A stretch of DNA of 19,863 nucleotides from Candidatus Iainarchaeum sp. GTDB taxonomy: Archaea > Iainarchaeota > Iainarchaeia > Iainarchaeales > GCA-2688035. The stretch lies in contig JAQTNI010000023.1 in assembly GCA_028713935.1 (NCBI GenBank), forward strand, positions 1 through 19,863, in the 5' to 3' direction. Below the pieces are notes generated by a model that searched no databases, had not been told where the DNA came from, and saw only the letters and a program-made list of their open reading frames with translations. The position numbers and the translations under genes are program-made. Below, piece by piece: positions 3,551-18,075 of the stretch; position 1 is the first letter of the stretch, and every line of letters begins with the position of its first letter.

Positions 3551-3560
3551 ATTTTTAAAT
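3551..3560 (+). promoter_or_regulatory. TATA-like box (ATTTTTAAAT) about 29 nt upstream of the argS ATG at 3585
   Basis: A/T box and spacing consistent with a leaderless argS mRNA. Confidence 0.4.
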
Positions 3561-3584
3561 CTGAATTGCCAATTATAACTTGTT

Positions 3585-5300
3585 ATGGATTTCAAAAAAA
3601 GCCTTGTTTCCGCGCTTTCCGCTGCGCTTGAAAAAAAAGTTTCTGATGAACAATTGTCTTCTTTTATTGAATCACCAAAAGATTCAAAAATTGGGGCTTT
3701 TGCATTGCCCTGTTTCAAGCTCGCGCCTGTCCTGAAAAAAGCCCCTGCGGAAATTGCTTTGGAGCTCCAAAAAAAATTTGTTCTGCCAAAAGGGATTGAA
3801 AAGGCAGTTGCTTCCGGGCCTTACCTGAACTTTTTTTTGAAAAAAGAGAATCTTGCAGTGCAGGTTTTGAAACAGGTTTTTCAGCAGAAAGAAAAATTTG
3901 GCTGCAGCAAAATTTCAAGGAAAAGAATAATGGTTGAATATTCTGCTCCAAATACTAACAAGCCATTGCATCTGGGGCATCTGAGGAATGATTCAATTGG
4001 AATGGCTGTTTCAAACTGCCTGATGGCAGTGGGAAACACTGTTATAAAAGCGAATTTGTACAACGACAGGGGAATTCATATCTGCAAGAGCATGGTTGCC
4101 TATAAAAAATTCGGGAAAGGTTCTTCTCCGGCCAAAGAAAAAATCAAGGGAGACCATTTTGTTGGAAAATTTTATGTCTTGTTTTCAAAAGAGGCAGGGC
4201 AAAATCCTGCATTGGAAGAAGAGGCCCAGGAATTGCTTAAAAAATGGGAATCAAAGGACAAGGAAACAATTGCATTGTGGAAAAAAATGAATTCCTGGAT
4301 TTTAAATGGATTCAGGCAGACATATAAAGAATTTGGAAGCAAATTTGACATTGAATTTTTTGAATCTGTTTTTTTTGACAAAGCAAAGCCAATTATTGAG
4401 GCAGGGATAAAAAAAGGGGTTTTTGAAAAAAATTCTGAAGGCGCCTTGGTTGCATTGCTTGAGCCTGAACTCCCGAACAAAGTGGTTTTGCGCTCTGACG
4501 GAACAAGCATTTATGCAACAAACGATCTGGCTTTGACAAAGCACAAGTTTGAGAAATTCAAGCTTGATGAGGCAATCTGGATTGTTGGGAATGAGCAGAA
4601 CCTTTATTTGCAGCAATTGTTCAAAATTTTTGAAAAGCTCGGTTTTTCCTGGGCAAAAAAATGCAGGCATCTTTCCTTTGGAATGGTTTTTTTGCCTGAA
4701 GGCAGAATGAAATCAAGAGAGGGAAAAGTTGTTGATGCAGATGATTTGATTAATGAAATGGCTTTTCTTGCCGCAGCTGAAATAAAAAAAAGGCATAAGG
4801 GCTTGAGCGAAAAAGAAGTTGCAAAGAGAAGCAAAAAAATTGCTTTGTCTGCAATAAAGTTTTTTCTTTTGAAAATCGATTCAGCAAAAGACATGAATTT
4901 TGACCCGGAAAAAAGCATTGCTTTTGAAGGCGAAACAGGTCCTTATGTGCAGTATACTTATGCAAGGGCAAAAAGCATTTTGCGCAAATCAAAAAAAACT
5001 GGTTTTGCAAAAGCAAATTTTGGCCTCCTGAAGGAGCAATCAGAATCAGAGCTTGTTTCCCTGCTAGCGGATTTTCCAGGGGTTGTGCAAAAAACAGCTT
5101 CCCATCTAAGCCCACACGTGTTATGCCAGTATTTAATCGGGCTTTCTGAAAAATTCAATTCTTTTTACCATGCAGTGCCAGTACTGCAGGCAGAAAACAA
5201 GAAGATTGCGGAAGCAAGGCTTGCGCTTGTAGCTGCAACTGCCCAAACACTGAAAAACGGTTTGGCATTGTTAAACATTGAAACTCTGGAAGAAATGTAA
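3585..5300 (+). CDS. argS: Arginyl-tRNA synthetase
   Basis: 571 aa. Class I HIGH motif (NTNKPLHLGHLRN). Typical ArgRS blocks: RSDGTSIYATNDLA, ETGPYVQYTYARAKSIL. Characteristic C-terminal ...LEEM. Confidence 0.95.
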   Translation: MDFKKSLVSALSAALEKKVSDEQLSSFIESPKDSKIGAFALPCFKLAPVLKKAPAEIALELQKKFVLPKGIEKAVASGPYLNFFLKKENLAVQVLKQVFQQKEKFGCSKISRKRIMVEYSAPNTNKPLHLGHLRNDSIGMAVSNCLMAVGNTVIKANLYNDRGIHICKSMVAYKKFGKGSSPAKEKIKGDHFVGKFYVLFSKEAGQNPALEEEAQELLKKWESKDKETIALWKKMNSWILNGFRQTYKEFGSKFDIEFFESVFFDKAKPIIEAGIKKGVFEKNSEGALVALLEPELPNKVVLRSDGTSIYATNDLALTKHKFEKFKLDEAIWIVGNEQNLYLQQLFKIFEKLGFSWAKKCRHLSFGMVFLPEGRMKSREGKVVDADDLINEMAFLAAAEIKKRHKGLSEKEVAKRSKKIALSAIKFFLLKIDSAKDMNFDPEKSIAFEGETGPYVQYTYARAKSILRKSKKTGFAKANFGLLKEQSESELVSLLADFPGVVQKTASHLSPHVLCQYLIGLSEKFNSFYHAVPVLQAENKKIAEARLALVAATAQTLKNGLALLNIETLEEM

Positions 5301-5304
5301 CAAT

Positions 5305-5547
5305 TTATTCCAATTCCACGCCATCATTCATGTTCTGGCCACGGGTCGCCGTGTTTTGAATCCTTCTTATTTCTGATTCCAATTTGGAAACTTTGCCTTT
5401 CCTGTCTTCAATCTGCGCCAAAAGCTCTTCTTCTTCCTCAGGATAAAGCAAGCCGCTTTTTTTCTTTTGCACAAGCCTTTTTTCAAGGTTTGCTATTTCA
5501 ACACCGAGCTTTTTTATTCCATATTCAATGTCTTTTATCTCATCCAT
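5305..5547 (-). CDS. 80-aa highly charged coiled-coil protein, last gene of the radical-SAM operon
   Basis: ATG 5547 is preceded by GGAGGAG at a 5-nt spacing. The upstream part of the track ORF overlaps the cupin gene. Sequence: MDEIKDIEYGIKKLGVEIANLEKRLVQKKKSG...KVSKLESEIRRIQNTATRGQNMNDGVELE. Confidence 0.5.
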   Translation of the reverse strand: MDEIKDIEYGIKKLGVEIANLEKRLVQKKKSGLLYPEEEEELLAQIEDRKGKVSKLESEIRRIQNTATRGQNMNDGVELE

Positions 5548-5566
5548 TATGACTCCTCCAAAAAAA

Positions 5567-5929
5567 TTATTCCAGCACTTCTTCATCCTCTTTTTTCCAT
5601 GCAGGCGAAACAATGCACAAAAAAACAAGGCTTTTTTTGCCGGTATTTTTTATTCTCTGTTTTGCATTTGCAGGAATAAAAACAGCCTGCCCTGATTTTA
5701 CGCTCTCAGCTTCTTCATCAATCTGCATCAGCCCTGTTCCCTGCAAAATAAAATAAAGCTCTGAGTTTTTCAGCCTGTGCCAGAAAGAGGTTTTCCCCGG
5801 CTTTAAAGCTGCTTCTCCAATGCAGTAGTTCAAATCAACATTGTCAAAAGCAGGATGCAAAATTGACCTGAAAATTGTTTTGTCGCCTGCAATGAATTTT
5901 TTGCTTTTTGCCAAATCTTTGATTAACAT
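5567..5929 (-). CDS. Cupin-fold protein (cupin_2-like) with degenerate metal-binding motifs
   Basis: ATG 5929 lies 25 nt after the upstream stop. Cupin motif 1 is GKTSFWHRLKNSELYFILQG (HXH reads HRL). Motif 2 is GQAVFIPANAKQRIKN (the His position is Gln). Confidence 0.7.
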   Translation of the reverse strand: MLIKDLAKSKKFIAGDKTIFRSILHPAFDNVDLNYCIGEAALKPGKTSFWHRLKNSELYFILQGTGLMQIDEEAESVKSGQAVFIPANAKQRIKNTGKKSLVFLCIVSPAWKKEDEEVLE

Positions 5930-5954
5930 GTAAATACTGATAGAATGAGTTTTT

Positions 5955-6974
5955 TTATTTGTTTTGATTTGGGATTTTTGGCCTGTAAGGACAGGTTCCA
6001 TTGCAGGTTTTTCTGTCGTGCATTGGAAATTTTTCAATTATCTTTTTTTGCAGTTTCCTAATTGAATTTTCCCTTATGTTGCCTATTATTGTTTCATTGG
6101 CATCACAGGGGCTTACGTTTCCATTGCCCCATATTTCAATAAATTCAACGCAGGGCATTGTTGCAAAATTATTGTAAATGGGATGTTCAAAACCATATTC
6201 CTTGTCAACTCTTTCCACTGTTTTTCTTAAAACCTTTTTTTCTTCTTCGTTTAACATTATTGCCCTGTCAAAAGAGTCTTTTCCGCTTCTTCCCGCAGGA
6301 AGAAAATCATTGAAAACAACCCAGAGATTATTTTCCCTGCAATAACGCAAAGTTTTTTCCACTTCGTGCATATTTTTTCTTGAAATAACCATTACAAAGC
6401 CAAGCCTTGTTGTGCCGTCTTTTTCCACTTTGTTAAAGCCTTCCTTAATCAGCAAATTTATGGCTTCATTCCTCTGTTCAAAATATTTTCCAGTTTTATC
6501 CCTTACTACCCAATTCTGGTATTCCGGATTGAATAGGCTGTCACATTTTGGGCAGATACTTGCGCCTGTTTTTTTGATTTTTCTTACAAAATCAATGTCG
6601 CGCATTTTTGTTGCGGCTTCAGTGAAAACTATTGGCTGAATTCCTTTTTTTGCAGTGTACCCAATTATTTCAAAAAAATCTTCATCAAGAGTTGGCTCGC
6701 CTTCCCCCAAAAAATCAATTGCCCTTGTATGCAATTCAGCAAGCTGGTCAATAATGCTTTTTATTTCTTCCAGTGTTAAATCTTTTTTCTGCTTGTCTGT
6801 AAAACAATGAAAACAATCCCGCGGGCAAGCGGAGGTCATAACCCTTAAGTCAACAACAGGCAATTTTTCAGGGTCATGATAATCTTGTTCAGGAATATTC
6901 CATCCTTTGATAACAGCGCCTATTCCAATAGGCACTTTTCCCAAGCCAAAATATGGCTGCTTCGAAAGTTTCAT
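5955..6974 (-). CDS. Radical SAM enzyme with C-terminal twitch/partial-SPASM domain (paralog B)
   Basis: 339 aa. CxxxCxxC cluster motif CPRDCFHC. SAM-binding GEGEPTL. C-terminal C-x14-C containing GNVSPC (GX4C), then IGNIRENS and CNGTC. Confidence 0.85.
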   Translation of the reverse strand: MKLSKQPYFGLGKVPIGIGAVIKGWNIPEQDYHDPEKLPVVDLRVMTSACPRDCFHCFTDKQKKDLTLEEIKSIIDQLAELHTRAIDFLGEGEPTLDEDFFEIIGYTAKKGIQPIVFTEAATKMRDIDFVRKIKKTGASICPKCDSLFNPEYQNWVVRDKTGKYFEQRNEAINLLIKEGFNKVEKDGTTRLGFVMVISRKNMHEVEKTLRYCRENNLWVVFNDFLPAGRSGKDSFDRAIMLNEEEKKVLRKTVERVDKEYGFEHPIYNNFATMPCVEFIEIWGNGNVSPCDANETIIGNIRENSIRKLQKKIIEKFPMHDRKTCNGTCPYRPKIPNQNK

Positions 6975-6991
6975 TTGCGCATCGCCTGTTT

Positions 6992-8140
6992 TTAGTTTTC
7001 AGGGGTTGTTAACCCGAATTTGCTGTTCATTTTTGCAATCATTTCTTTTTGGATTATTTGGTTTTCTGTTCTTGGAGGGCAAAAATAGGCCTCTTTAAAT
7101 TTTTTCTTTTCAGCATGGTTCTCCCAAATTTCTTCCAAGGGTTTATCTCTTACATTTCCAAGATTTTGGAATTTTCCAGGGCAGGCAAAAACCTGCCCCC
7201 TCACATTGATATACAACCCGTATCCAAGCTGAGTGCAGTTTAATCCGCCAATAAAAGGCGAAACTGCATTAAACGGAATGTCAAGAAGCCGGTTTTGCTC
7301 ATAAATTTTTTTATACAGTTCCAGCTTTTTTGCATAGGAAACATCGATAACTTGGTTTTCTTTTTGCCTTTGGAAATAGTTTCCGCACGGCATTGAAGTG
7401 ACCATGTCAGGATAGATATTCAGGTAATATTTCAGTTTGTCAATATCCAAAAGTTCCGGATAGGTTTGTTTTGTAACCTGGACCTCAAGCCCAAGCCTTG
7501 TGGGGCTTTCAGATGCAAAGCCTTTTTCAATCAATTTTTTCAGCGCAGTATTCCTTAATTTGGCATACCCGGGATAATTCACTATTTTGTCCATTACTTT
7601 TGGCTTGAAGCTGTCTCCCTTAATGAATACTCCGACATCTTTCCTGAAAAGGTAATCAATTATTTCCTCGGAAGTTTTTTGCTGGTATTTCTTTGCAAGG
7701 GAATCGTCTGCAAGAGCATGGCCATTTGTGAACAAAACAACTTTAATTTTTTTGTCCAGCAGGCAATTTAGTGCCTCAAAAAATCTTGGGTCTTCAAAGA
7801 ATTCCCCTGCCCCTATGAGTTTTACTGCCCCAACTCCTAATTTCTTTGCCTGGTCAACAAGATTTTTCCATTCATCAAGCGATAAAGGGCTTCCAATATC
7901 CCTGCTGTCCATGTTTCTATAGCAATACTGGCATCTCAGTGAGCAGGCAGTGCCGAATTCCAGGTCCAAAACAAGCAGCCTGCCATTTTTATTGGCTCTG
8001 GCTATTTCTTCTTCAGTGAAATGCCAGTGCTTAAAACCGTTGACAAATTTTTTTCCAAATGTTTTCCTTGAAGGAAATCCTTTTTCAATGAAAGGGAGAA
8101 ACAACTCCGCTATCTCTTTGTTTTCAAAAATTTTGTCCAT
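6992..8140 (-). CDS. Radical SAM enzyme with C-terminal twitch-like domain (paralog A)
   Basis: CSLRCQYC cluster motif. GAGEFF sits where GGEP is expected. C-terminal CTQLGYGLYINVRGQVFAC (C-x12-G-x4-C), then LGNVRDKPLEEIW. The track start at 8182 is TTG; ATG 8140 (MDKIFENKE) is preferred. Confidence 0.85.
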   Translation of the reverse strand: MDKIFENKEIAELFLPFIEKGFPSRKTFGKKFVNGFKHWHFTEEEIARANKNGRLLVLDLEFGTACSLRCQYCYRNMDSRDIGSPLSLDEWKNLVDQAKKLGVGAVKLIGAGEFFEDPRFFEALNCLLDKKIKVVLFTNGHALADDSLAKKYQQKTSEEIIDYLFRKDVGVFIKGDSFKPKVMDKIVNYPGYAKLRNTALKKLIEKGFASESPTRLGLEVQVTKQTYPELLDIDKLKYYLNIYPDMVTSMPCGNYFQRQKENQVIDVSYAKKLELYKKIYEQNRLLDIPFNAVSPFIGGLNCTQLGYGLYINVRGQVFACPGKFQNLGNVRDKPLEEIWENHAEKKKFKEAYFCPPRTENQIIQKEMIAKMNSKFGLTTPEN

Positions 8141-8281
8141 GCAAAGCCCCCGCTGGCGAAGAGAATTTGTGCAATCAGGCAAGCGTGTATATAACTTGCT
8201 TTTTCAGAAAATAAAAATAAAATATTCTATTTTTTAATCAAAATGATAATATTTTAATGTTTTTTATTGTTATGTTAAAAT

Positions 8282-9268
8282 ATGGTTGATTCCTTGGATT
8301 TGAAGGACAGAAGGCTTCTTTTGGAACTGGATACCGATTGCAGGCAGTCAAATGCCGAAATCGGAAGAAAAATCCGCTTGTCAAAAGAGGTCGTGAAATA
8401 CCGCATAGGCAAGCTTATTGAAAAAAAAATAATCAATTCTTTTTCGGCCCATGTTGACCTTACCAAGCTTGGCTACCGCATGTGCAAAATATACTTTCAG
8501 CTTCAAAAGTCAAAGTCCGAAGGGCAGATTGTTGAATATCTGCTTTCAAAAAAACAGGTTTTCTGGCTTGCTTCCTGTGAGGGCAACTGGAACATTATTT
8601 GCGGGGTTTTGCTTAAGGATGTTTTTTATTTTCACGAATTTATTGCCGATGTCCTGAATAAGTTCAGCGATGCAATCCTGAAAAAAGCCATTTCAATATC
8701 AATTTTTATTCCGGAATTTCCAAAGGCTTATCTTGTAGAAAGGCAAAACAGCCAGCTTAGGCACAATAGTTTTGGCGGCATTTGTGGAGACATTGTGCTT
8801 AGCGAAAACGAACTTTTGCTTTTAAGGGTGCTTTCAATGAATGCGAGGCTTAGCACTACTGAAATTGCGGAAAAAACAGGGCTTTCCCCGATGCAGGTTT
8901 CTTACGGAATAAAAAAGCTTAAGCGGGAAAAAATAATCCTTTCCTTCAGGCTGAACCTCAATTATGAAAAACTTGGTTTGCTCTATTTCAAGCAGTTTGT
9001 CACTTTTCGCGCCCCTACAAAAGAAAAAATTGGCAGCGCAATAGAATTCTGCAGAAAGCACCCAAATATTACTTATTCAATCTTCTGCATTGGAACCTGG
9101 GACCTTGAAATAGATTCGGAAGTAAAAAATTACTCCGAGTTTAATGCGCTTGCAAAAGAATTCAAGGAAAAATTTTCAGACATAATACTTAGCCACGAAT
9201 CAATCCAGATTTCAAAGGAATACAAAATGGATTTCATGCCGGAAAGCATAGGTCCTTATTCCAAATAA
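8282..9268 (+). CDS. Tandem (two-module) Lrp/AsnC-family transcriptional regulator
   Basis: 328 aa with two HTH_AsnC-like modules: DLKDRRLLLELDTDCRQSNAEIGRKIRLSKEVVKYRIGKLIEKKII and LSENELLLLRVLSMNARLSTTEIAEKTGLSPMQVSYGIKKLKREKII. Each is followed by a ~90-aa effector-like domain. It is divergent from the radical-SAM operon. Confidence 0.8.
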   Translation: MVDSLDLKDRRLLLELDTDCRQSNAEIGRKIRLSKEVVKYRIGKLIEKKIINSFSAHVDLTKLGYRMCKIYFQLQKSKSEGQIVEYLLSKKQVFWLASCEGNWNIICGVLLKDVFYFHEFIADVLNKFSDAILKKAISISIFIPEFPKAYLVERQNSQLRHNSFGGICGDIVLSENELLLLRVLSMNARLSTTEIAEKTGLSPMQVSYGIKKLKREKIILSFRLNLNYEKLGLLYFKQFVTFRAPTKEKIGSAIEFCRKHPNITYSIFCIGTWDLEIDSEVKNYSEFNALAKEFKEKFSDIILSHESIQISKEYKMDFMPESIGPYSK

Positions 9269-12200
9269 ATTGCCGGCTTCATTGGCTTTGCTTTTCCTGC
9301 CTTGTTTTCGGGATCAAATTTTTCCCTGTCATTCACTGCAAAAACCTTTGTTTCCAGCGAGGTTCTTGTTTTTATTGTTTCAATGTTTTCAAGCAATAAT
9401 TGTTTTTCCTGTGGAAGGGAATAAACAAAAACTTTTGTTGGCTGTTTGCCTTTTGATTTCACTATTTTTACTATGTTGTTAATGTCCTCAATAAGCTTGT
9501 CAAGCGCTTTTTCCTCTTCTTCAAATTTTGGGTTTATTTTTGCTTCATCCGCAACTGGCCATTCCGCAACTGCAATCATTTTTTTGTTTCCAAGTTTTTC
9601 CCAGAATTCCTCTGCAATGTGGGGGCAGAAAGGCGCAATTATTTTCAAAAAACTTTCAAGAGTGCCTCGGCTTTCCTCTTTGGAAAGGGCATCAAAAAGC
9701 TTTCTGATTCCGATTATTGCGACATTGTATTCAAATTTTTCTATGTTCAGGGAAATTTCTTTTATGCTTTTGTTTATTTTGCTTTCCATTTTTGCAGAGC
9801 TTTTGCCTGTTTTTGCTGTTTCAAAATAATCAACAATTTTTTTAATGAATTTTGAAGCGCTTTCCATGCCTTCAGAACTCCAGGAAAAATCCTTGTCAGG
9901 AGAGGCAATTGAAACAAGGTAAAAGCGTAAAGCATCAGCAGAGTATTTTTCAATCATTTCAATAGGATTGACAACATTGCCCCTTGATTTTGACATTACA
10001 AAGCCGTCTTCTCCGTGCAGCATTCCCTGGTTGAAAAGGTTCTGGAAAGGCTCGCCGAATTTTAAAAATCCGCAGTCACGCAGAGCCATTGCAAAAAATC
10101 TTGCATAAATCAAATGCATGCAGGCATGCTCCGCGCCTCCTATATACTGGTCGACCGGCATCCAATAATCAATTTTTTTTAAATCAAAAGGGGCTTTTTG
10201 ATTCTTGTTGTCGCAGTATCGCAGGAAATACCAGCTTGAATCAAAAAAAGTGTCCATTGTGTCTGTTTCTCTCTGCGCAGGACCCCTGCATTTTGGGCAT
10301 TTTGTTTCCACAAAAGCCTTGTTTGTTGCCAAGGGATTTCCAATTCCAAATTTTACTTTTTCCGGAAGCAGGATTGGCAATTGTTTTTCCGGAACAGGCA
10401 CAATTCCGCATTTTTCACAATAAACAATCGGAATAGGAGTTCCCCAGTATCTCTGCCTTGAAACAAGCCAGTCACGCAATTTGTATTGGACAGTTTTTTT
10501 TCCAATGCCTTTTTTCCCCAAATCAGAAGAAATTTTTTCAATTGCCTCTTTGTTGCCAAGCCCTGAAAATTCCTTGGAATTTACAAGAACACCTTCCCCA
10601 GTGAAAGCTTCTTTCAATTCAACTTCAGGATTTTCTTCTTTTGGCTGAATAACAATTTTGATTGGAATATTGTATTTTTTTGCAAATTCAAAGTCCCTCT
10701 GGTCATGGGCAGGAACAGCCATTACCATGCCAGAGCCATAATCTGCAAGAACAAAATTTCCCGCAAAAACAGGCACTTTTTCTCCTGTAAGGGGATTGAT
10801 TGCATTGCTTCCAGTAAAAGCGCCTTCTTTTTCAAGTTCAAAAGCATCTTTTTCGCTTGTGGACTTTATTTTTTTCAAAAAAGCCCCTATTTCCTGCTTT
10901 TGCCCCGGAGCAACCAATTCCATTAACCTTGGATGCTGGGCAGAAACAACCATGAAAGTAACTCCAAAAATAGTGTCAGGGCGCGTAGTAAAAATTGGCC
11001 AGTTTTCAAATATGCAATTCAAAACTTCTGGTTCAACATTGCCATTAAAATGAGTCTTACTGCCCTTAGAAAGAATATATTTTGCACCCAAATTTCTTGC
11101 AATTTCTTCAGGATGCCCAAATGGAACAATATGGTCTGCTTTGTCCTCAAGAATTATTATTTTGCCTGCCCTGCTTTTTATTTTTTCAAAATCAAACTTC
11201 CAATCACAATATTTTTCCAAAACAGGCCTTTTTTTGTTATCCTTGAATTCTGTTTTCAAAGGGGGTGCAATCATTACCAAGCAACTTATTTTTTCCTCCA
11301 GCTTTGGAAGCAGTTTCATTGCCAAAACTCCCCCAAGCGAGTGCGTGATTAGCACAGTGTTTTTATTGAACTTGTAATTTTTTAATACAAAATTTATTTG
11401 TTCCTCTATTTTTGGTTCATTGGTGTTTGGCAAATCAGGCGCAAAAGCAACAGTGCCGCCTCTTGCTTCTATTTGCTTTTTCAACCAATCCCAAAAAGCG
11501 CTTTTTGAATTGTCCTGGAAAGCATGCAAAAAAACAAATTCTTTTTCTTTAATGTCCCAAAAACTTGGAATTTCGAATGCGATTTCTGTTCCGAAGCTTT
11601 TTCCAATCCAGTTTTCCTGCATTGTTTTTATTCTTTCAGGCCAGTTGAGGCTTGGAATGTCTTTGAGAAGTTCTTCTGCATAGGCAGTTGTTTTGATGAA
11701 CCATTGTTCAAGGTTTTTTACTTCAACATCGGTATCTGTGTGGCGCCAGCATTTGCCGTTATGCACCTGTTCGTTTGCAAGCACTGTGTTGCATTTTGGG
11801 CACCAGTTGGAAGGAGCCAATTTTTTCTGGACAAGGCCTTTTTCAAAAAATTTTAAAAAAAAGAATTGGTTCCACTTGTAATACTCAGGTTCATAGGTAA
11901 TCAGCATCCTGTCCCAGTCATAGCTTAAACCGAGGCGTTTCTGCTGGAGAATAAAATTTTTAATTGCCTTTTCAGTGTATTTTTTGGGATGCTCTCCTGC
12001 CTGAATAGCCGCGTTTTCCGCTGGCAGGCCCATGCTGTCATAGCCCATTGGATAAAGAACGTTAAAATTGTTCATTCTCTTGAAGCGGGCATAAACATCG
12101 CCAATTGTGTAATTGAAAGCATGGCCCATATGAAGCCCGCTTCCTGAAGGATAGGGAAACATTTCCAAACAGTAAAATTTTGGCTTGTTTTTTGTTTCTT

Positions 12201-12294
12201 TTGCCTTAAAAATCTCTTCTTCTGCCCATTTTTTTTGAAATTTTGCCTCAATTTTTTGAAAATTAACAGACATTTTTTCACCAAGGGTTTTCAC
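9256..12294 (-). CDS. leuS: Leucyl-tRNA synthetase (bacterial-type domain order) carrying an inserted serine-hydrolase domain
   Basis: HMGH and VMSKS class I motifs. Zn finger CPKC...CWRH lies before CP1. CP1 editing motifs TTRPDTIFG and MAVPAHDQRDFEFA are present. The codon at 12294 is GTG. ATG 12273 (MSVNFQKIEAKFQKKW) is preceded by GGTGA and may be the true start. The 3' end overlaps the convergent Lrp gene by 13 nt. Confidence 0.95.
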   Translation of the reverse strand: MKTLGEKMSVNFQKIEAKFQKKWAEEEIFKAKETKNKPKFYCLEMFPYPSGSGLHMGHAFNYTIGDVYARFKRMNNFNVLYPMGYDSMGLPAENAAIQAGEHPKKYTEKAIKNFILQQKRLGLSYDWDRMLITYEPEYYKWNQFFFLKFFEKGLVQKKLAPSNWCPKCNTVLANEQVHNGKCWRHTDTDVEVKNLEQWFIKTTAYAEELLKDIPSLNWPERIKTMQENWIGKSFGTEIAFEIPSFWDIKEKEFVFLHAFQDNSKSAFWDWLKKQIEARGGTVAFAPDLPNTNEPKIEEQINFVLKNYKFNKNTVLITHSLGGVLAMKLLPKLEEKISCLVMIAPPLKTEFKDNKKRPVLEKYCDWKFDFEKIKSRAGKIIILEDKADHIVPFGHPEEIARNLGAKYILSKGSKTHFNGNVEPEVLNCIFENWPIFTTRPDTIFGVTFMVVSAQHPRLMELVAPGQKQEIGAFLKKIKSTSEKDAFELEKEGAFTGSNAINPLTGEKVPVFAGNFVLADYGSGMVMAVPAHDQRDFEFAKKYNIPIKIVIQPKEENPEVELKEAFTGEGVLVNSKEFSGLGNKEAIEKISSDLGKKGIGKKTVQYKLRDWLVSRQRYWGTPIPIVYCEKCGIVPVPEKQLPILLPEKVKFGIGNPLATNKAFVETKCPKCRGPAQRETDTMDTFFDSSWYFLRYCDNKNQKAPFDLKKIDYWMPVDQYIGGAEHACMHLIYARFFAMALRDCGFLKFGEPFQNLFNQGMLHGEDGFVMSKSRGNVVNPIEMIEKYSADALRFYLVSIASPDKDFSWSSEGMESASKFIKKIVDYFETAKTGKSSAKMESKINKSIKEISLNIEKFEYNVAIIGIRKLFDALSKEESRGTLESFLKIIAPFCPHIAEEFWEKLGNKKMIAVAEWPVADEAKINPKFEEEEKALDKLIEDINNIVKIVKSKGKQPTKVFVYSLPQEKQLLLENIETIKTRTSLETKVFAVNDREKFDPENKAGKAKPMKPAIYLE
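11002..11568 (-). other. Inserted alpha/beta serine-hydrolase domain (YdeN/RBBP9, PF06821-like) within LeuRS, aa ~243-431
   Basis: Lies between GKSFGTEIAFEI and WPIFTTRPDT. Motifs: FVFLHAF, FWDWLKKQIEARG, APDLPN, nucleophile elbow ITHSLGG (Ser319 codon 11338-11340), DKADHIVPF (Asp387), THFN (His415). Confidence 0.75.
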
Positions 12295-12409
12295 TGAATT
12301 TGTGCAATTACAATAATTAAAAAAGAAGCAGAATTAAAACCTATTGAATTTTTGGCAAAAAACCCAGCAATCAGTTTTATATATAACTTTTTACTATAAT
12401 CCATAAAAA

Positions 12410-12784
12410 ATGCAGGGAGGTGAAACATTGGCACATGAATCAATCGGAGCATACTCCTTCCTAATCGGAGTGATTATTGCAGTCATTGCAGGAATAGCAG
12501 GCAGTGCAATTGCAGTATATGCGGGAGCAATCGGCTTGATTCTCGTGATTTTGGGATTAATAGTTGGTTTCCTGAACATCACTGATAAAGAAACAATGCC
12601 CTTCCTTGTTGCAGCAGTTGCCTTGATGGTTGCCGGCTCAGCAAATCTGATGATAATCAATACAGTAATCCCAATGCTGGGAACAGTTCTTCAGGCAATA
12701 CTGGCAAACATTGTTGTCTTCATTGCACCAGCAGCAATCATTGTTGGCCTAAAGGCAATAATTGCAATGGCAAAAAACAAGTAA
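12410..12784 (+). CDS. Integral membrane protein (about 4 TM helices), function unknown
   Basis: Gly/Ala/Ile-rich hydrophobic segments throughout. A perfect GGAGGTGA (12415-12422) is followed 5 nt later by an in-frame TTG (12428), an alternative start. TTTTATATATAA lies ~25 nt upstream of 12410. Confidence 0.6.
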   Translation: MQGGETLAHESIGAYSFLIGVIIAVIAGIAGSAIAVYAGAIGLILVILGLIVGFLNITDKETMPFLVAAVALMVAGSANLMIINTVIPMLGTVLQAILANIVVFIAPAAIIVGLKAIIAMAKNK

Positions 12785-12794
12785 AACAAAAAAA

Positions 12795-12823
12795 TTTTTT
12801 AATTTAATTTTTTTTATTTTTTT
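12795..12823 (+). terminator. Cluster of oligo-T runs (T6, T8, T7) just after the stop codon; likely archaeal intrinsic terminator
   Basis: Three T-runs occur within 30 nt after the TAA at 12782-12784, in a convergent intergenic region. Confidence 0.4.
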
Positions 12824-12894
12824 AATGTTCAGCAGCACTTTAAAACCAAGCCAAATAATTAGGAAAAAAGCTAATCCACCTTAACCCAGAGGCA

Positions 12895-13437
12895 TTATTT
12901 GATTTTTATGCTGATTTTTTTTCCCACAACTGGCAGGAGCTGTTTGAATTCTATTTCAAGATTTTTGTTTATTTTAAGAGAATCAATCGGCTTGCTTGGC
13001 AATTTGCCGTTTACCTCATACAGGTAATAGCCCTTTTTTCCCTCGACTTCAGTAATAAATGCCCCTTCCTTTGTTTCCTCTATTTTCAGGCCAGAAATTT
13101 TTTTCAGTGCCTCAAGCATTTTTGTGCCCTTTGCAACCTCAATTACAAGGGATTTTTCAAAAAGCCCCAGGGCTTTTTTTATCCTGTTTGCTGCTTTTTC
13201 AGGCACTACAAGGAAATGGGTATTGCCGGCTTTCTGCCTTTCGACAAAGCCAGCCTGCTCGAGAATCCTCGCATGCCGCAAAGCGACAGGCACAGAAATA
13301 TTCAGCTCCTTTGCCAAGCCGGAAATATGCCTGCTTTGCATCAATAAAATCCTGAGCATTCGCATTCTGTTTTCATTGCCAAGCACTTTGAAAGCATCCA
13401 TTTTTTCACGTCCAATTGATATTATCATTTTTGACAA
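12895..13437 (-). CDS. ArsR-family winged-HTH regulator fused to a C-terminal DUF4430-like (transcobalamin beta-domain-like) domain
   Basis: N-terminus: FKVLGNENRMRMLRILLMQSRHISGLAKELNISVPVALRHARILEQAGFVERQKAGN. C-terminus: GTKMLEALKK...GAFITEVEGKKGYYLYEVNGKLPSKPIDSLKINKNLEIEF. Start is uncertain: TTG 13437, ATG 13428 or ATG 13401. Confidence 0.7.
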   Translation of the reverse strand: MSKMIISIGREKMDAFKVLGNENRMRMLRILLMQSRHISGLAKELNISVPVALRHARILEQAGFVERQKAGNTHFLVVPEKAANRIKKALGLFEKSLVIEVAKGTKMLEALKKISGLKIEETKEGAFITEVEGKKGYYLYEVNGKLPSKPIDSLKINKNLEIEFKQLLPVVGKKISIKIK

Positions 13438-13471
13438 TAACTATTATCTTTTTTGAAAAGTATTTAATAAG

Positions 13472-15040
13472 TTGCGCTCAGCTTGTTTTGGTGGTTGCTT
13501 GAAGCAGGCTTTGATTGTTCTTGTTTTTTTTATTTTAATTGGGTTTGCCGCTGCAAAGGATGTTACTGTTGTTTTCAATTTTCCAAGCGAAAATCACCCT
13601 GACATTGTGGAAGAAGTTTCGCTTCCTAATGATGCAAATGCTTTCAATGCTTTTATGGCAGTAGCATCGTCAAATTCTCTTGATTTGAACCTGGCGTATT
13701 ATGGGGAAACAATGGGCTGGTTTGTAAACGGAATTGACGGCTTAAACAACAATTGGCCTGATGCCTATTGGCATTTTTGGGTAAATGGCGCTGAAGCGCA
13801 GGTTGGAATAAGCAGCTTTGTTCCATTGAATAATAACACTATTGAACTTGGTTATGAAAGCATGCCTTTGAATCTGAATGAAACTGCTTTTGGAAGAGCA
13901 ATTGACTGGCTTGTTTCAAACCAGAAGCAGAGCGGGGAAATTGGAAACCATGCTGTCTGGGGAAACTCCTTTGCATTAATGGCTTTGTCTCTTGTTGAAG
14001 ACAAAAATATTTCAAAACAGAAAGCAATTGAATATTTGCTTTCAAATCAGTATCCAAATGCTGGTTTTGGATATCCGGGGTTTGGAGCCGATGCCGGGCA
14101 TAGCGCTGTTGCAACAATGGCACTGCTTTCAAACGGAAAAAGCATGGATAATTTTGATAAAAATGGCGTGACTACAATTGATTATATTATCACTAATCAG
14201 CAGAATGACGGGGGCTTTAGCAGCTGGGGAAGCAGTGATATTGACAGCACTTCCTGGGCAATGCTGGCTTTTGCACAATCCGGGACAGATATGCCTGTTA
14301 AAAACAATAATGCCCCTGTGGACTTTATTTTGAATACCCAGAATATTGATGGCGGATTCGGCTATAACAATGGGGATTCAAGCAAGGAAGATTATACTGC
14401 AGAGTCTCTTCTGGCATTGAAAGCAGCCGGAAAAGAAAAAAACTCCCAGGTTTCGAATGCAATTGGTTTTTTGAATTCAAAGAAAAATCCTGAAAATTGC
14501 CTTTCAAATTCATATACAACTGCCCTGGCAATTATTGCTTTTAATGCATGGGGCGAACCATATTCTGCTTTCCAGGATTGCCTTAGAACACAACAGCTTA
14601 CAGACGGCGGTTTTTCAAGAGACAATGCAAACGGCAGCAATTCTGTTGACACTGCAATGGCAGCAATTGCCCTGAAAGGGAAAACCCTGCCTTTAAGCAT
14701 TTCATCTGTAGACACAAACGGCCAGATTCCTGTTAATTCAATAATAAAGTTTTCTGTCAAAATAAAAAATACTGGGAAAATAAAGGCCAGCAATGTTTCA
14801 ATTGCTTTGGAAGGCCTGCCTCCAGACTGGATTGACACGGAAAGCAGCACAACTTACTTCAGCAGCATTCTGCCGGGAGAAACAAAAACCGCAGTTATTT
14901 TTGCAAGGGCAAAAACACAGGGCAACTTTTCAGTTTACGCTGAAGTTTCTGCACAGGAAACAATGCAAAGCGCAATAAGCAATTCACTGGCATTTGAAAC
15001 GGTTTCTGCTGTCCTGGAAGCAAGCATTTCAATGGAATAA
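13472..15040 (+). CDS. Secreted multidomain protein: N-terminal DUF4430 domain, alpha/alpha-toroid (prenyltransferase/squalene-cyclase-like repeats), C-terminal CARDB-like beta-sandwich
   Basis: Signal/anchor ALIVLVFFILIGFAAA. DUF4430 motif MGWFVNGIDG...YWHFWVNGAEAQVGISSF...IELGY. Repeated Q-x2-DGGF units (QQNDGGFSSWG, QNIDGGFGYN, QLTDGGFSRD). Tail KFSVKIKNTGKIKASNVSI...ILPGETKTAVIFARAKTQGNFSVYAEVS. Track start 13472 is TTG; TTG 13499 is an alternative. Confidence 0.75.
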   Translation: MRSACFGGCLKQALIVLVFFILIGFAAAKDVTVVFNFPSENHPDIVEEVSLPNDANAFNAFMAVASSNSLDLNLAYYGETMGWFVNGIDGLNNNWPDAYWHFWVNGAEAQVGISSFVPLNNNTIELGYESMPLNLNETAFGRAIDWLVSNQKQSGEIGNHAVWGNSFALMALSLVEDKNISKQKAIEYLLSNQYPNAGFGYPGFGADAGHSAVATMALLSNGKSMDNFDKNGVTTIDYIITNQQNDGGFSSWGSSDIDSTSWAMLAFAQSGTDMPVKNNNAPVDFILNTQNIDGGFGYNNGDSSKEDYTAESLLALKAAGKEKNSQVSNAIGFLNSKKNPENCLSNSYTTALAIIAFNAWGEPYSAFQDCLRTQQLTDGGFSRDNANGSNSVDTAMAAIALKGKTLPLSISSVDTNGQIPVNSIIKFSVKIKNTGKIKASNVSIALEGLPPDWIDTESSTTYFSSILPGETKTAVIFARAKTQGNFSVYAEVSAQETMQSAISNSLAFETVSAVLEASISME

Positions 15041-15050
15041 ACGTGGAAAA

Positions 15051-15569
15051 ATGCAGAGAAAAAGGATTTTTTTTTTGCTCGGCATAAGTGTTTTTGCGAT
15101 TGTATTGGGAATTGGTTTTTTTACCCTGGCAAACCCAAGCCTCACGGGATTTTTTGGATTGCCCAAAGGAACTGAATCTGCAATAGCAGGGCTTCCTTCC
15201 TTGGAAAACAATGAAAAAATTCCTGAAAAAACTGGCTTGGGAGCGGAATTATCAATAAGCGTGCTTAAAAAATCCCTGCTTTCCGCAAAGCTTTTTTTGC
15301 AAGGCAGAATTCCAAACTGCCCTGAAACAACAGACGCAAATGTTATTGTTGAAAACAGGGGAAATGAAAAAATAGAAGCTATAAAAATAAAGACAACTTC
15401 GCAGCTTCAAATAAGGGCTTGTTCAAACTGTACAGTGGATACAATCGGCATTGGAGAAACCAAAAAAATACAGTTAAAGCTCTGCAATGCTTCGGAAGAA
15501 ACCCCCTTAATCATTGTTTCATCAGCAAACACTGAGCAGATTGAAATCAGGGTTGACAAAAGCGGATAA
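15051..15569 (+). CDS. N-terminally membrane-anchored protein with a Cys-containing beta-sandwich (CARDB-like) ectodomain
   Basis: ATG 15051 lies 10 nt after the upstream stop. TM anchor RIFFLLGISVFAIVLGIGFFTLA. Ectodomain ANVIVENRGNEKIEAIKIKTTS...IGIGETKKIQLKLCNASEE resembles the C-terminal domain of the upstream gene. Confidence 0.55.
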   Translation: MQRKRIFFLLGISVFAIVLGIGFFTLANPSLTGFFGLPKGTESAIAGLPSLENNEKIPEKTGLGAELSISVLKKSLLSAKLFLQGRIPNCPETTDANVIVENRGNEKIEAIKIKTTSQLQIRACSNCTVDTIGIGETKKIQLKLCNASEETPLIIVSSANTEQIEIRVDKSG

Positions 15570-15690
15570 AAAAATCATTTTTCCAGAAGCCCTTTTTTCT
15601 TCAGCATTAAATAGGGGTAGCCTCTTTTGTCTGTTTTTGAAGCATCAATGTTGTTGTGGGCCATATACAATCATTTCACAAAAAGTGTTT

Positions 15691-16293
15691 TTATCTGCGT
15701 CTGCGCTTTCGCAAGGGCATTTTTGCTTTCTTTTTTATTGCGCGCTGTACTGCACAGGTTGCGGAAAATCTTTCATGGGCAAGTGCTTCTTTGAGAGTAA
15801 GGCCAACAAAATGGATTTCATCAATAGGAACGCCTAGTGCCCTTGCAATTCCAAGCGAGTGCATCCCACCAATAATTGCCATTGGCAAATTAGTTCGTTG
15901 AATCTGCTTAACCATTATTCTAGTGTCCTTAATTGAACTGAAACTAATAATATAGTTAATATGCATAAAGTATACCAGCGAGAGGCCAGCAAGAGACTGT
16001 TCTAAAAGCAAACGATTCAAATATTCACGGGAAAATTGAGAGCCCAAAGGCACAACTGCAATGCCTCTTGTTTCAGCATATTTTTTAAGTTGGCTAAAAA
16101 AGTCAGGCTCTGGGTTATATGAAATGCCTGGGCACTTTTTTTCAAGTCTTTTTTGCATCCACTTAATAAACTTTGGAGACTGGGGGCGTTCAATGCCAAT
16201 TTGCCTGATTCCCTTTTGGCGAGCTTCATCAATAATTGCCTTGCATTCTTCCAAATTATGCGGTTTATGTTCCACACCAATTATTTCTGTCAT
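15691..16293 (-). CDS. Hypothetical protein, possibly TraB/TIKI/ChaN-like fold, with a poly-basic C-terminal tail
   Basis: 200 aa, starting 6 nt downstream of the alaS stop. Paired GxxH-type motifs at both ends (IIGVEH near the N-terminus, AIIGGMHSLGIA near the C-terminus) as in the TraB/TIKI family. Tail KKKAKMPLRKRRRR. The assignment is tentative. Confidence 0.45.
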   Translation of the reverse strand: MTEIIGVEHKPHNLEECKAIIDEARQKGIRQIGIERPQSPKFIKWMQKRLEKKCPGISYNPEPDFFSQLKKYAETRGIAVVPLGSQFSREYLNRLLLEQSLAGLSLVYFMHINYIISFSSIKDTRIMVKQIQRTNLPMAIIGGMHSLGIARALGVPIDEIHFVGLTLKEALAHERFSATCAVQRAIKKKAKMPLRKRRRR

Positions 16294-16299
16294 AATTTT

Positions 16300-18075
16300 C
16301 TATTCCAATACTGCTTTTATTCTTCTCACGCCTGCGCTAACTGCTTCTTCTTTTGTAATCTTGAACCTGCCCAGTTCTGAAGTGTTTTTTACATGGGGGC
16401 CTGCACAGACTTCTTTTGAAAACCCGCTTATTGTGTAAACAGAAACTTTTTCTGGAACATATTTTGATTCAAAAAAAGCAAGTGCGCCTTCTTTTCGGGC
16501 CTGTTCAAGCGAAGTTTCTTTTCTTTCAACAGGAAGCTTTTTCTGGATCGCCTCGTTTACAAGGGATTCAACTTTTTTTAACTGTTCTTCTGTCAGCTTT
16601 TCCGGATATGAAAAATCAAAGCGCAGCCTTTCAGGAGTTATATTTGAGCCTTTTTGCTGGGCATGTTCTCCAAGAACTTTTCGCAGGGCTGCATGAAGAA
16701 GGTGTGTTGCGGTGTGAAGTTTTGTTGTTTCAATGCTGTTGTCCTGCAATCCGGACTTGAATTTTTGTTCCGAACCTTTTCTTGAAAGTTCCTGGTGTTT
16801 TTCAAATTCTTTTTCAAATTCTTTTTTGTCAATTGCAAGGCCTTTTTCTTTTGCAAGGTCAATTGTCATTTCAAGGGGAAATCCTTCTGACTGGTAAAGC
16901 AGAAAAGCGTCTTTTGCAGTTATTTTGCCATTGTTCTGCCTGAAAAGTTTTTCAAATTCTTTTATGCCATTGGCAAGAACCCTTGAAAAGCGCTCTTCTT
17001 CCTTGTCAAGCTCTGAATAAATGGCCTGCTCGTATTTTTTTAACTGGGGCCATTCTTCGGAATAAATTTTTACAAAGATTTTTGCTATTTTGCCGCAAAA
17101 TTTTTGTTCTATTCCAAGAAGCGAGCCCTGCCTTACTGCCCTTCTGATAAGCCTCCTGAGAATATATCCCTGTTCAACATTGCTTGGCACGATTCCTTTT
17201 CCTTCCGAAAGAAGAAAAGAGGCTGCGCGCAAATGGTCTGCAATAATCCTTTTTGAGGTTTCAAGACCTTTGTTTTTGGAAAGCTTTGCAATTTCATCCA
17301 TTGCTGGCTTGAACATTTCTGTTTCATAAACGCTTGTTTTTCCCTGCAACATTGTGATTGTCCTTTCAAGGCCCATTCCAGTGTCAACATTTTTTTGTTT
17401 GAGCAATTCAAATTTGCCTTCAGCTGTCTTGTTGTACTGCATGAAAACATCATTCCAGATTTCAAAGTATTTGCCACAGTGGCAGCCAGGCCCGCAATCA
17501 GGCCCGCACTTTTGTTTTCCAGTGTCATAAAACATTTCAGTGTCAGGGCCGCAGGGACCTGTTTTTCCAGCGGGGCCCCACCAATTATCCTCTTTGGAAT
17601 TGAAAAAAATCCTTTCTTTTGGAATTCCGCATTCCTGCCAGATTTTTGCGCTTTCCTCATCGCGGGGTGCATCCTTGTCTCCTGCAAAACAGGTTACAAA
17701 AATTTTGTTTTTGTCAAGGCAAAGCCATTTTTTTCCAGTGAGAAATTCGTGGCTCCATGAAATCGCTTCTTTTTTGAAATAATCCCCTAAAGACCAGTTG
17801 CCAAGCATGAAAAAAAATGTCAGGTGTGAAGCATTGCCAACTTCTTCAATGTCGCCAGTGCGCAGGCATTTCTGTATGCCAACAAGCCTTTTTCCAAGCG
17901 GGTGTGGCTGGCTTAAAAGGTAAGGCACGAGCGGGTGCATTCCTGCAGCAGTGAACAAAACAGTGGGGTCATTTTCAGGAATAAGGGAAGCACTGGGAAT
18001 AATTGCGTGCCCCTTGGTTTTGAAAAAATCAAGGTATTTTTCAACAAGCTTTTTTGCAGTCCAATTCCCAGCCAT
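16300..18075 (-). CDS. alaS: Alanyl-tRNA synthetase, bacterial-type catalytic and editing domains, lacking the C-Ala domain
   Basis: N-terminus FFKTKGHAIIPSASLIPENDPTVLFTAAGM. Editing-domain zinc motifs HTATHLLHAAL and CAGPHV. The protein ends at GVRRIKAVLE (591 aa from ATG 18075; the track start at 18096 is TTG). Confidence 0.93.
   Translation of the reverse strand: MAGNWTAKKLVEKYLDFFKTKGHAIIPSASLIPENDPTVLFTAAGMHPLVPYLLSQPHPLGKRLVGIQKCLRTGDIEEVGNASHLTFFFMLGNWSLGDYFKKEAISWSHEFLTGKKWLCLDKNKIFVTCFAGDKDAPRDEESAKIWQECGIPKERIFFNSKEDNWWGPAGKTGPCGPDTEMFYDTGKQKCGPDCGPGCHCGKYFEIWNDVFMQYNKTAEGKFELLKQKNVDTGMGLERTITMLQGKTSVYETEMFKPAMDEIAKLSKNKGLETSKRIIADHLRAASFLLSEGKGIVPSNVEQGYILRRLIRRAVRQGSLLGIEQKFCGKIAKIFVKIYSEEWPQLKKYEQAIYSELDKEEERFSRVLANGIKEFEKLFRQNNGKITAKDAFLLYQSEGFPLEMTIDLAKEKGLAIDKKEFEKEFEKHQELSRKGSEQKFKSGLQDNSIETTKLHTATHLLHAALRKVLGEHAQQKGSNITPERLRFDFSYPEKLTEEQLKKVESLVNEAIQKKLPVERKETSLEQARKEGALAFFESKYVPEKVSVYTISGFSKEVCAGPHVKNTSELGRFKITKEEAVSAGVRRIKAVLE

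Follow-up and report, generated by a model that had tools for sequence, protein, structure and literature searches.

A YdeN/RBBP9-family serine hydrolase nested in the CP1 editing domain of a bacterial-type leucyl-tRNA synthetase from an archaeon, and its cassette-like recurrence in DPANN and CPR genomes

Background

Aminoacyl-tRNA synthetases (aaRS) are the textbook case of enzymes to which hydrolytic 'sieves' have been added to protect the genetic code, and to our knowledge all editing sieves known so far fall into a handful of folds. The INS domain of bacterial prolyl-tRNA synthetase (ProRS) occupies a fixed position, is a proven deacylase and contains no catalytic triad. Here we describe a stretch of 19,863 nucleotides (nt) from Candidatus Iainarchaeum sp. 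(GenBank assembly GCA_028713935.1, contig JAQTNI010000023.1, positions 1 to 19,863), hereafter the window, in which leuS encodes a bacterial-type leucyl-tRNA synthetase (LeuRS) with a serine hydrolase of the YdeN/RBBP9 type inside its connective polypeptide 1 (CP1) editing domain.

The relative of this hydrolase with described chemistry is RBBP9, an aminopeptidase that works through an aminoacyl-enzyme on Ser75. It acts on aminoacyl amides of hydrophobic and aromatic residues and requires their alpha-amine to be free (PMC8866121). RBBP9 also activates valacyclovir, the L-valyl ester of a nucleoside analogue, according to the citation of Shenoy et al. 2020 in PMC7730578. For the host domain, a 2026 survey classed the CP1 family PF13603 as 'insertion-exclusive', with zero host events in 213 cases (PMC13114784).

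Results

Identity and position of the insert

An earlier note, made from the letters of the window only, had described a whole YdeN/RBBP9-type alpha/beta hydrolase at LeuRS residues 243–431 (189 amino acids, aa). These residues map exactly to window positions 11002–11568, and all motifs that the note quoted were recovered in the translation (GKSFGTEIAFEI, FVFLHAF, FWDWLKKQIEARG, APDLPN, ITHSLGG, DKADHIVPF, THFN, WPIFTTRPDT, HMGH, VMSKS and AHDQRD). PF06821 (Ser_hydrolase) matched the segment alone with 35.2 bits (E 1.5e-8) and the segment within the full protein with 31.0 bits, against a gathering score of 22. In a PDB sequence search with the segment, E was 3.6e-13 for Bacillus subtilis YdeN (1UXO) and about 1e-5 for human RBBP9. 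The AlphaFold2 (AF2) model of the segment alone had a predicted local distance difference test score (pLDDT) of 86 and a predicted template modelling score (pTM) of 0.87. Its best Foldseek matches were 1UXO, with a template modelling (TM) score of 0.77, and RBBP9 7OEX, with 0.79; 7OEX, 2QS9 and 9FCR ranged from 0.76 to 0.79 and the next alpha/beta hydrolases lay at about 0.6. The note's assignment is thus borne out, and by profile and predicted structure the insert is a serine hydrolase of the YdeN/RBBP9 family that folds as an autonomous unit and has its Ser-Asp-His triad conserved. In searches of Pfam and NCBIfam, of PDB sequences and of folds, the insert matched alpha/beta hydrolases only and none of the established editing folds (CP1, INS/YbaK, N2/AlaX, DTD, PheRS B3/B4).

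Within LeuRS the hydrolase sits between profile positions 21 and 22 of PF13603. As CP1 is itself placed inside the Rossmann fold, there are three levels of nesting, with the hydrolase within CP1 and CP1 within the Rossmann fold. In the alignment with Thermus thermophilus LeuRS, residues 11–242 correspond to T. thermophilus 5–236 and residues 433–776 to 244–594, so the insert replaces T. thermophilus 237–243, the seven-residue tip of the first CP1 beta-hairpin. In the full-length AF2 model, strands 232–243 and 429–436 form the hairpin arms that flank the inserted domain, and the model is confident over both junctions. The C-terminus of the insert lies four residues ahead of F435 and the TTRPDT peptide. 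From WIGxS (WIGKS in the window, within residues 1–242) to TTRPDT the distance is 22 aa in 61 insert-less relatives versus 207 aa in the window LeuRS; in nearly all insert-bearing relatives it is about 186–220 aa, the exception being P0122, where a degenerate, shorter insert gives a spacing of 146 aa. Nothing is inserted at the first CP1 hairpin in the solved LeuRS structures. The identity and position of the insert are far beyond chance. Its GC content is slightly below that of the flanks, and a search around the junctions for direct or inverted repeats gave AT-rich chance matches only.

Catalytic triad and selection

The three catalytic residues named in the earlier note are present, and Ser319 and Asp387 align with the corresponding residues of RBBP9 (Table 1). 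Across 68 relatives (60 nested and 8 free-standing domains, aligned with RBBP9 and YdeN fragments by a local-pair method; mean pairwise identity about 41%), Ser319 is conserved in 99%, Asp387 in 96% and His415 in 99%. The elbow around Ser319 fits the small-x-Ser-x-small pattern. His415 sits in the expected C-terminal loop; it is only presumed to be the counterpart of RBBP9 His165, because the aligned RBBP9 and YdeN fragments stop at residue 157. A Ser-Asn-His subgroup that appeared in a first MAFFT alignment was rejected as an alignment artefact, the acid being Asp in 96% once RBBP9 and YdeN were included in the local-pair alignment.

Between the window and its nearest orthologue (locus L006, see below), the ratio of nonsynonymous to synonymous substitution rates (dN/dS) was 0.11 for the insert and 0.14 for the rest of LeuRS, both values being approximate because dS is near saturation. 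As far as these sequences tell, the hydrolase module is under purifying selection as strong as that on its host, and the insert is a selected, apparently catalytic enzyme.

The host synthetase

The window LeuRS is encoded by a single, uninterrupted frame of 1012 codons. It scored 889.9 bits with TIGR00396 (leuS_bact; cut-off 548.4) and 227.6 bits with the archaeal model TIGR00395, under the cut-off of 648.5. The Pfam domains found were PF00133, PF13603 (202 bits), PF09334 and PF08264. The full-length AF2 model had a pLDDT of 90.2 and a pTM of 0.79, with values below 50 for residues 1–7 and of about 65 for residues 551–560. Since homologues start near the position of Met8 and residues 1–7 are modelled so poorly, the true start is probably Met8 (ATG at 12273), the GTG lying too far upstream. 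Foldseek matched the model to solved bacterial LeuRS with TM 0.71–0.80, normalised by target length. Given this fold and the intact motifs, the enzyme is predicted to leucylate tRNA(Leu).

The earlier note had regarded the host as otherwise intact, and this was confirmed across 121 LeuRS homologues, in which HxGH, TTRxDT and HDxRD are invariant. HxGH was kept in 121 of 121. The peptide F435-T436-T437-R-P-D-T441 contains the threonines known as T247, T248 and T252 in T. thermophilus and Escherichia coli; T436, T437, R438, D440, T441, H530, D531, R533 and D534 did not vary in any of the 60 insert-bearing or the 61 insert-less proteins. D534 corresponds to D347 of T. thermophilus and D345 of E. 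coli. In MSKS, M and K were present in all 121 and the first S in 120, with a lone Ala in an insert-less protein. A column-by-column scan of LeuRS for residues co-varying with the insert picked out only the junction residue E241, and no insert-associated change was found in the synthetic or editing pockets. Judged by these residues, the synthetic and CP1 editing sites are unchanged, and the host is probably a working synthetase with a normal editing site.

The C-terminal part of the protein (residues 707–1012) is matched over residues 707–994 by the archaeal profile NF008957, and its last ~90 aa gave no match to the bacterial C-terminal domain. It resembles the arrangement described in haloarchaea, a bacterial LeuRS with an archaeal tRNA-binding domain (PMC4005665).

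Recurrence and cassette-like behaviour

The survey of orthologues in related metagenome-assembled genomes (MAGs) that the earlier note had proposed showed that 59 of the 120 closest LeuRS have the insert, exactly where the window protein has it, and that 61 lack it. By the sources' own names and GTDB titles, the insert-bearing proteins come from Woese-, Pace-, Nano- and Iainarchaeota and from a few bacteria of the candidate phyla radiation (CPR: Uhrbacteria, Parcubacteria, 'Patescibacteria'). The exact window protein is absent from the public protein collection searched. Its nearest orthologue, in L006 from an independent Iainarchaeum MAG, is 77–78% identical overall (insert 76%, core 79%). 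In GTDB loci the hydrolase was nested in 12 of 15 cases and lay directly upstream of leuS in the remaining three. In all, the nested architecture was seen in at least 100 cluster representatives from DPANN archaea and CPR genomes, under the NCBI labels 'leucine--tRNA ligase', 'class I tRNA ligase family protein' and 'alpha/beta fold hydrolase'. In full-text literature searches, no paper turned up that describes a LeuRS with an internal hydrolase, NUDIX or Ham1 domain. The remark in the earlier note that no LeuRS of this architecture had been described therefore stands for the literature searched, but the architecture is not rare. A word-indexed search with the insert only had returned 8 free-standing hydrolases and no nested ones, which reflects a limit of sensitivity and not biology, as the full-length search and an exhaustive profile search recovered the nested hydrolases that it missed.

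Presence of the insert differs between LeuRS whose cores are 81–89% identical and, in a rough analysis of identities, core and insert identity were uncorrelated (Spearman 0.016). One case is the pair P0011 (with insert) and P0098 (without), which lie in syntenic loci with SpoIIM, a 151-aa gene, alanyl-tRNA synthetase (AlaRS), an oligonucleotide/oligosaccharide-binding (OB) fold gene and TctA. Their leuS genes (L021 5001–7985 and L022 5001–7457) are 84% identical in nucleotides and are separated by one clean in-frame indel of 531 nt, which is exactly the hydrolase domain and swaps the loop 'NGKN' for it. No mechanism is evident for so precise an in-frame gain or loss. The hydrolase thus behaves as a cassette that is gained or lost among closely related orthologues and, since its presence flips between near-identical orthologues, as an accessory, dispensable module.

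Other insertion sites, hosts and modules

When 1.84 billion representatives were searched exhaustively with a profile, 1840 matched; the best 150 of these were classified, with P0005 set aside as a member of the query set. Among these 150, 50 were nested in bacterial-type LeuRS at one of three sites. Site 1, the hairpin used in the window, is by far the commonest; site 2 follows the CxxC knuckle (window residues 625–630) in CPR-type LeuRS (P0141, P0171, P0146, P0163, P0164); at site 3 the hydrolase lies in the CP1 variable loop. Six further matches among the 150 were in valyl-tRNA synthetase (ValRS; P0187 and five others). AlaRS was a host in one representative (P0167), and a tandem hydrolase was also found (P0132). 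In a rough neighbour-joining tree, hydrolases of unusual hosts nest among LeuRS-borne ones, that of the UvrB protein P0217 lying nearest to those of LeuRS P0058 and P0060. Assemblies of both the UvrB and the TsaD form exist, on 5 contigs each.

In many related LeuRS the CP1 variable loop after AHDQRD (near window residue 551), empty in the window protein, holds a second nested domain. It was seen in P0010, P0029, P0045, P0057, P0075, P0081–83, P0093, P0099, P0123, P0146 and P0163; some copies are NUDIX domains that keep the Nudix box intact, and the others are unknown modules about 110 aa long, of which there are two (P0016/35/40/103 and P0022/28/34/41). Other domains occupy the site-1 hairpin: an in-frame IS200-like Y1_Tnp domain (PF01797, 52.8 bits) at residues 269–374 of P0164, a Candidatus Parcubacteria LeuRS; a Ham1-like pyrophosphatase domain (PF01725, 27.5 bits) at residues 255–326 of P0255; and apparently a Ham1-like domain in P0166, by motif only, as Pfam reported no Ham1 match. 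With hydrolase, Y1 transposase and Ham1-like domains all found there, the site-1 hairpin is a hot spot for in-frame insertion.

Free-standing copies

Nine close free-standing hydrolases were examined, and seven of them lie 0–81 nt upstream of leuS on the same strand. The adjoining LeuRS is of the archaeal type (TIGR00395) for P0001, P0137 and probably P0005, where the neighbour is a 957-aa class I synthetase with no type assigned, and of the bacterial type for P0003, P0004, P0140 and P0142. The contigs of the remaining two are 3.2 kb (P0131) and 1.8 kb (P0144) long. P0007, a distant family member (33% identical), shows no leuS linkage. In one Candidatus Pacearchaeota operon (L025 4001–8549, JAHZTO010004402.1), genes abut in the order hydrolase, hydrolase (both PF06821), YbaK-like editing protein (PF04073, 87.7 bits), Ham1-like protein, LeuRS of the archaeal type. 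Taken together, the clade to which the hydrolase belongs, spread over DPANN archaea and CPR bacteria, is overwhelmingly linked to LeuRS, either within three of its loops or as a gene abutting the 5' end of leuS.

Gene neighbourhood of the window

Coordinates of the features are collected in Table 1. In the window, a NUDIX gene (PF00293, 70 bits) lies 35 nt upstream of the arginyl-tRNA synthetase (ArgRS) gene; NUDIX genes also flank AlaRS in L021 (9310–9711) and the hydrolase-leuS pair in L001 (5425–5865). Orthology of these three NUDIX proteins to the LeuRS-nested NUDIX domains is unsupported, the similarity being confined to the Nudix box. The window AlaRS is a short form of 598 aa (NF002436 PRK01584, 894 bits) without the long C-terminal region of canonical AlaRS, and AlaRS is a neighbour of LeuRS in L021 and L022 as well. 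A tandem radical-SAM/SPASM gene pair follows a cupin gene and stands beside a double AsnC-type helix-turn-helix (HTH) regulator immediately downstream of leuS. This cluster may serve peptide maturation, and a link to the hydrolase finding appears absent. No tRNA genes were found in the window.

Table 1. Features of the window (aa, residues of the window LeuRS counted from the GTG; positions in nt)
Feature	Position	Strand	Basis or remark
leuS, bacterial-type leucyl-tRNA synthetase, 1012 aa from GTG	9256–12294	-	TIGR00396, AF2, Foldseek
LeuRS aa 1–242, first half of Rossmann fold and first CP1-hairpin strand GTEIAFEI	11569–12294	-	alignment to T. thermophilus LeuRS 5–236
HMGH, aa 55–58	12121–12132	-	class I HxGH motif
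ZN1 knuckle CPKC...CWRH	11740–11802	-	within LeuRS aa 1–242
Nested YdeN/RBBP9-type serine hydrolase, aa 243–431 (189 aa)	11002–11568	-	PF06821, 1UXO, model
Ser319 codon tcg, nucleophile, elbow T-H-S-L-G	11338–11340	-	aligns to RBBP9 Ser75
Asp387 codon gac, triad acid	11134–11136	-	aligns to RBBP9 Asp138
His415 codon cat, triad base	11050–11052	-	presumed equivalent of RBBP9 His165
Rest of CP1 editing domain, aa 432 to ~620	10435–11001	-	PF13603
Thr-rich peptide TTRPDT, aa 436–441	10972–10989	-	CP1
AHDQRD, aa 529–534	10693–10710	-	CP1
CP1 variable loop, aa 546–573, empty	10576–10659	-	relatives carry modules
YCEKCG/IVPVPE, aa 625–636, uninterrupted	10387–10422	-	site 2 of relatives
VMSKS, aa 766–770, KMSKS-type loop, synthetic site	9985–9999	-	motif
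LeuRS C-terminal part, aa 707–1012	9256–10175	-	NF008957 (aa 707–994)
NUDIX gene	3077–3550	+	PF00293
Arginyl-tRNA synthetase gene	3585–5300	+	
Cluster of radical-SAM/SPASM pair and AsnC-type regulator, first part	5955–8182	-	
Cluster of radical-SAM/SPASM pair and AsnC-type regulator, second part	8282–9268	+	
Alanyl-tRNA synthetase gene, short form	16300–18096	-	NF002436 PRK01584

Discussion

Proposed function

We tentatively read the hydrolase, at a probability of about 0.45, as a LeuRS-linked, cassette-like accessory aminoacyl hydrolase for quality control, tethered to the synthetase without being part of the CP1 pocket. If it works as RBBP9 does, its Ser319 would attack, at the carbonyl, an alpha-aminoacyl ester or anhydride that LeuRS makes or that arises near it. 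Candidate substrates are the 3' ends of mischarged or unwanted aminoacyl-tRNA(Leu), released non-cognate aminoacyl-adenylates and aminoacylated nucleotides. The domain would form a third hydrolytic site, tethered yet geometrically independent, and not extend the CP1 pocket. NUDIX, Ham1 and the YbaK-like deacylase might be fellow parts of a LeuRS-associated clean-up kit, a notion suggested by the occurrence of NUDIX and Ham1 in the same LeuRS loops or operons and of the YbaK-like gene in one operon. A functional tie to LeuRS and aminoacyl chemistry is supported by the gene neighbourhood together with the chemistry of RBBP9; two observations argue that the tie is real, namely linkage with two non-orthologous types of LeuRS and independent fusion events in which LeuRS is over-represented.

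Several observations weigh against this assignment to quality control. The insert may be present or absent between LeuRS with 89% identical cores. The YbaK-like neighbour occurs in one operon only, and when YbaK-like domains nested in LeuRS were sought, the 120 closest homologues were all free-standing proteins of about 161 aa. Because LeuRS-linked sequences served to build the census profile, the host counts of the census are biased. Hosts with a single representative include proteins other than aaRS (EngA P0133, TsaD P0169, UvrB P0217 and a SecA fragment, P0147), and there are two-domain fusions without any aaRS, to NUDIX, to Ham1 and to peptidase S51 (P0268); the hydrolase can therefore work without LeuRS. 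The residues by which RBBP9 anchors the alpha-amine (Glu108, Ser76, Tyr99) were sought in the alignment and are not conserved: Glu108 aligns to Lys355, with the neighbouring Asp352 conserved in just 71%, and Ser76 corresponds to Leu320. Substrate recognition by RBBP9 is for this reason not transferable residue by residue.

Alternative explanations

It is unlikely, though not far-fetched, that the hydrolase is a house-cleaning enzyme hitch-hiking in permissive loops and operons of essential, constitutive genes of streamlined DPANN and CPR genomes, with LeuRS as its commonest vehicle and no mechanistic link to aminoacylation. Much of its behaviour would suit such a passenger: nesting in EngA, TsaD, UvrB, SecA and AlaRS and fusion to NUDIX, Ham1 and S51; the place of the odd-host hydrolases, such as that of P0217 near P0058 and P0060, within the LeuRS-borne diversity; the use of three separate LeuRS loops; the clean 531-nt indel between syntenic orthologues; the want of correlation between core and insert identities (Spearman 0.016); and the entry of Ham1-like and even IS200-like Y1_Tnp domains at the same hairpin. 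However, free copies have no structural reason to adjoin leuS, yet seven of nine do so, with two types of LeuRS; aaRS, above all LeuRS, are far over-represented when hosts are counted as independent events; and one operon adds a bona fide aminoacyl-tRNA editing domain. The earlier note had argued from position that a hydrolase beside the editing site suggests proofreading. In its strict form, the triad would look onto either the CP1 pocket or the path that the tRNA 3' end takes, and would widen the range of mischarged tRNA(Leu) that is cleared. In favour of this, the domain ends four residues from F435 and T436-T437 in the Thr-rich peptide, site 1 is by far the commonest position, and the aaRS hosts (LeuRS, ValRS, AlaRS) are all editing synthetases. 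The argument proved weak, since the same clade occurs at two other LeuRS loops, in other hosts and as a separate gene, so that neither exact placement by the CP1 pocket nor a precise geometry relative to CP1 can be essential. CP1 residues show no compensating change, E241 at the junction being the only one strongly associated with the insert, and the hydrolase fold is unlike every known editing fold; we consider such a cis-acting extension improbable.

An equally small chance is given to amino-acid supply, in which an RBBP9-like aminopeptidase would cut Leu (or Val, Ala) from the N-termini of imported peptides next to the synthetase that uses it, as would suit auxotrophic episymbionts. RBBP9 acts as an aminopeptidase on hydrophobic and aromatic residues (PMC8866121), an S51 peptidase fusion (P0268) and a tandem hydrolase (P0132) exist, and the aaRS hosts are LeuRS, ValRS and AlaRS. 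Against it, free amino acids diffuse, so that fusion would bring little benefit, the association with NUDIX, Ham1 and YbaK-like proteins better fits quality control, and there are hosts other than aaRS. Self-protection is very improbable. MccF cleaves processed microcin C; in a comparable way the hydrolase, with NUDIX or Ham1, would destroy aminoacyl-nucleotide 'Trojan-horse' inhibitors of LeuRS. Patchy, cassette-like gain and loss with transfer between DPANN and CPR is typical of conflict genes and, going by the valacyclovir work in the form in which PMC7730578 cites it, members of the family cleave aminoacyl-nucleoside esters, but toxin and defence genes are absent from the neighbourhood and purifying selection equal to that on the host gives no sign of an arms race. 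The chance of an assembly chimera, a disrupted pseudogene or an intein is negligible. Only the oddity of the architecture and the absence of the exact protein from the public collection would speak for an artefact, and the same architecture is found in the 77–78% identical orthologue of the independent MAG and in dozens more. The frame of 1012 codons is open, dN/dS is 0.11, the AF2 junctions are confident and flanking repeats are absent. An intein was rejected because no Hint match was found and the junctions (Pro243, Asn431/Trp432) depart from the splice pattern of inteins, which has Cys or Ser first, His-Asn last and Cys, Ser or Thr at +1; in homologues the last residue of the insert is mostly K, otherwise N or S, and the following residue is always Trp. 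Recurrence, the conserved triad, dN/dS and the invariant host motifs thus exclude chimera, decay and intein, in agreement with the earlier note, which had held the insert to be neither decay nor an intein.

Significance

Beyond the accessory role preferred here, the hydrolase could represent an unrecognised, putative class of proofreading enzyme for aminoacyl-tRNA or aminoacyl-adenylate, with an alpha/beta-hydrolase fold and a Ser-Asp-His triad. It would be free in leuS operons or nested in class I synthetases and spread in DPANN and CPR as an in-frame cassette with NUDIX and Ham1, the LeuRS surface loops acting as an insertion hot spot that takes even an IS200-like Y1 domain. We regard this wider proposal as somewhat doubtful. 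If the insert edits, its fold makes it a new class among editing domains, and if the proposal is true, an essential gene would also be seen to gain and lose modules in a new way. With a LeuRS-tied serine hydrolase whose catalytic residues are intact, translational quality control would gain a new factor. The tie takes three forms: nesting at three sites, operon linkage with two types of LeuRS, and co-occurrence with NUDIX, Ham1 and YbaK-like proteins. The minimal genomes of DPANN and CPR are otherwise short of quality-control factors. Whatever the function, the 531-nt polymorphism and the reuse of loops by unrelated domains show that essential genes of these lineages gain and shed whole domains in frame.

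Comparison with known systems

The proteins themselves are already in public databases under generic names, and synthetases with accessory hydrolytic modules are of a known kind. What is new, and was unexpected, is that the hydrolase behaves as an in-frame cassette with several sites and hosts.

YdeN (1UXO) and the PF06821 family share with the window domain the fold, a minimal alpha/beta hydrolase of about 190 aa, and the same order of H-x, (G/T)HSxG, D and H. YdeN is free-standing and its substrate is unknown, whereas the window domain is nested inside the inserted domain of another enzyme and belongs to a DPANN/CPR subclade (mutual identity at least about 48%) that is tied to leuS, unlike distant members such as P0007. 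RBBP9 (2QS9, 7OEX) likewise has the same fold (TM 0.79) at 18% identity, with Ser75/Asp138 in the places of Ser319/Asp387, and its chemistry on alpha-aminoacyl donors with a free amine, as far as the sources cited above describe it, is the chemistry proposed for the window domain. Unlike the latter, RBBP9 has no link to tRNA synthetases, and it carries Glu108 and Ser76 in place of Lys355 and Leu320.

Among synthetases, isoleucyl-tRNA synthetase (IleRS) with an extra N-acetyltransferase (NF040702, ileS_w_GNAT) is a class Ia synthetase that carries an unrelated small-molecule enzyme; enzyme class and host are both different there, and the window protein, with 113.5 bits against a cut-off of 1999, is no member. 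CP1 (PF13603) is, like the hydrolase, a hydrolytic insert of the Rossmann fold, acting on aminoacyl esters, but it is universal in LeuRS, works with a Thr-rich peptide and a conserved Asp, and differs in fold from the insert. In the window LeuRS, CP1 is itself the host, opposite to the survey cited at the outset (PMC13114784), and the 531-nt presence/absence pair and the reuse of loops contradict the published view by which the editing domain of LeuRS never hosts insertions. The closest analogy is bacterial ProRS INS with free YbaK/ProXp, which follows the same logic of a small hydrolase that is nested or separate depending on the lineage; in contrast to INS, the hydrolase described here has an unrelated fold, occupies several positions in several hosts, and has an activity that is predicted only.

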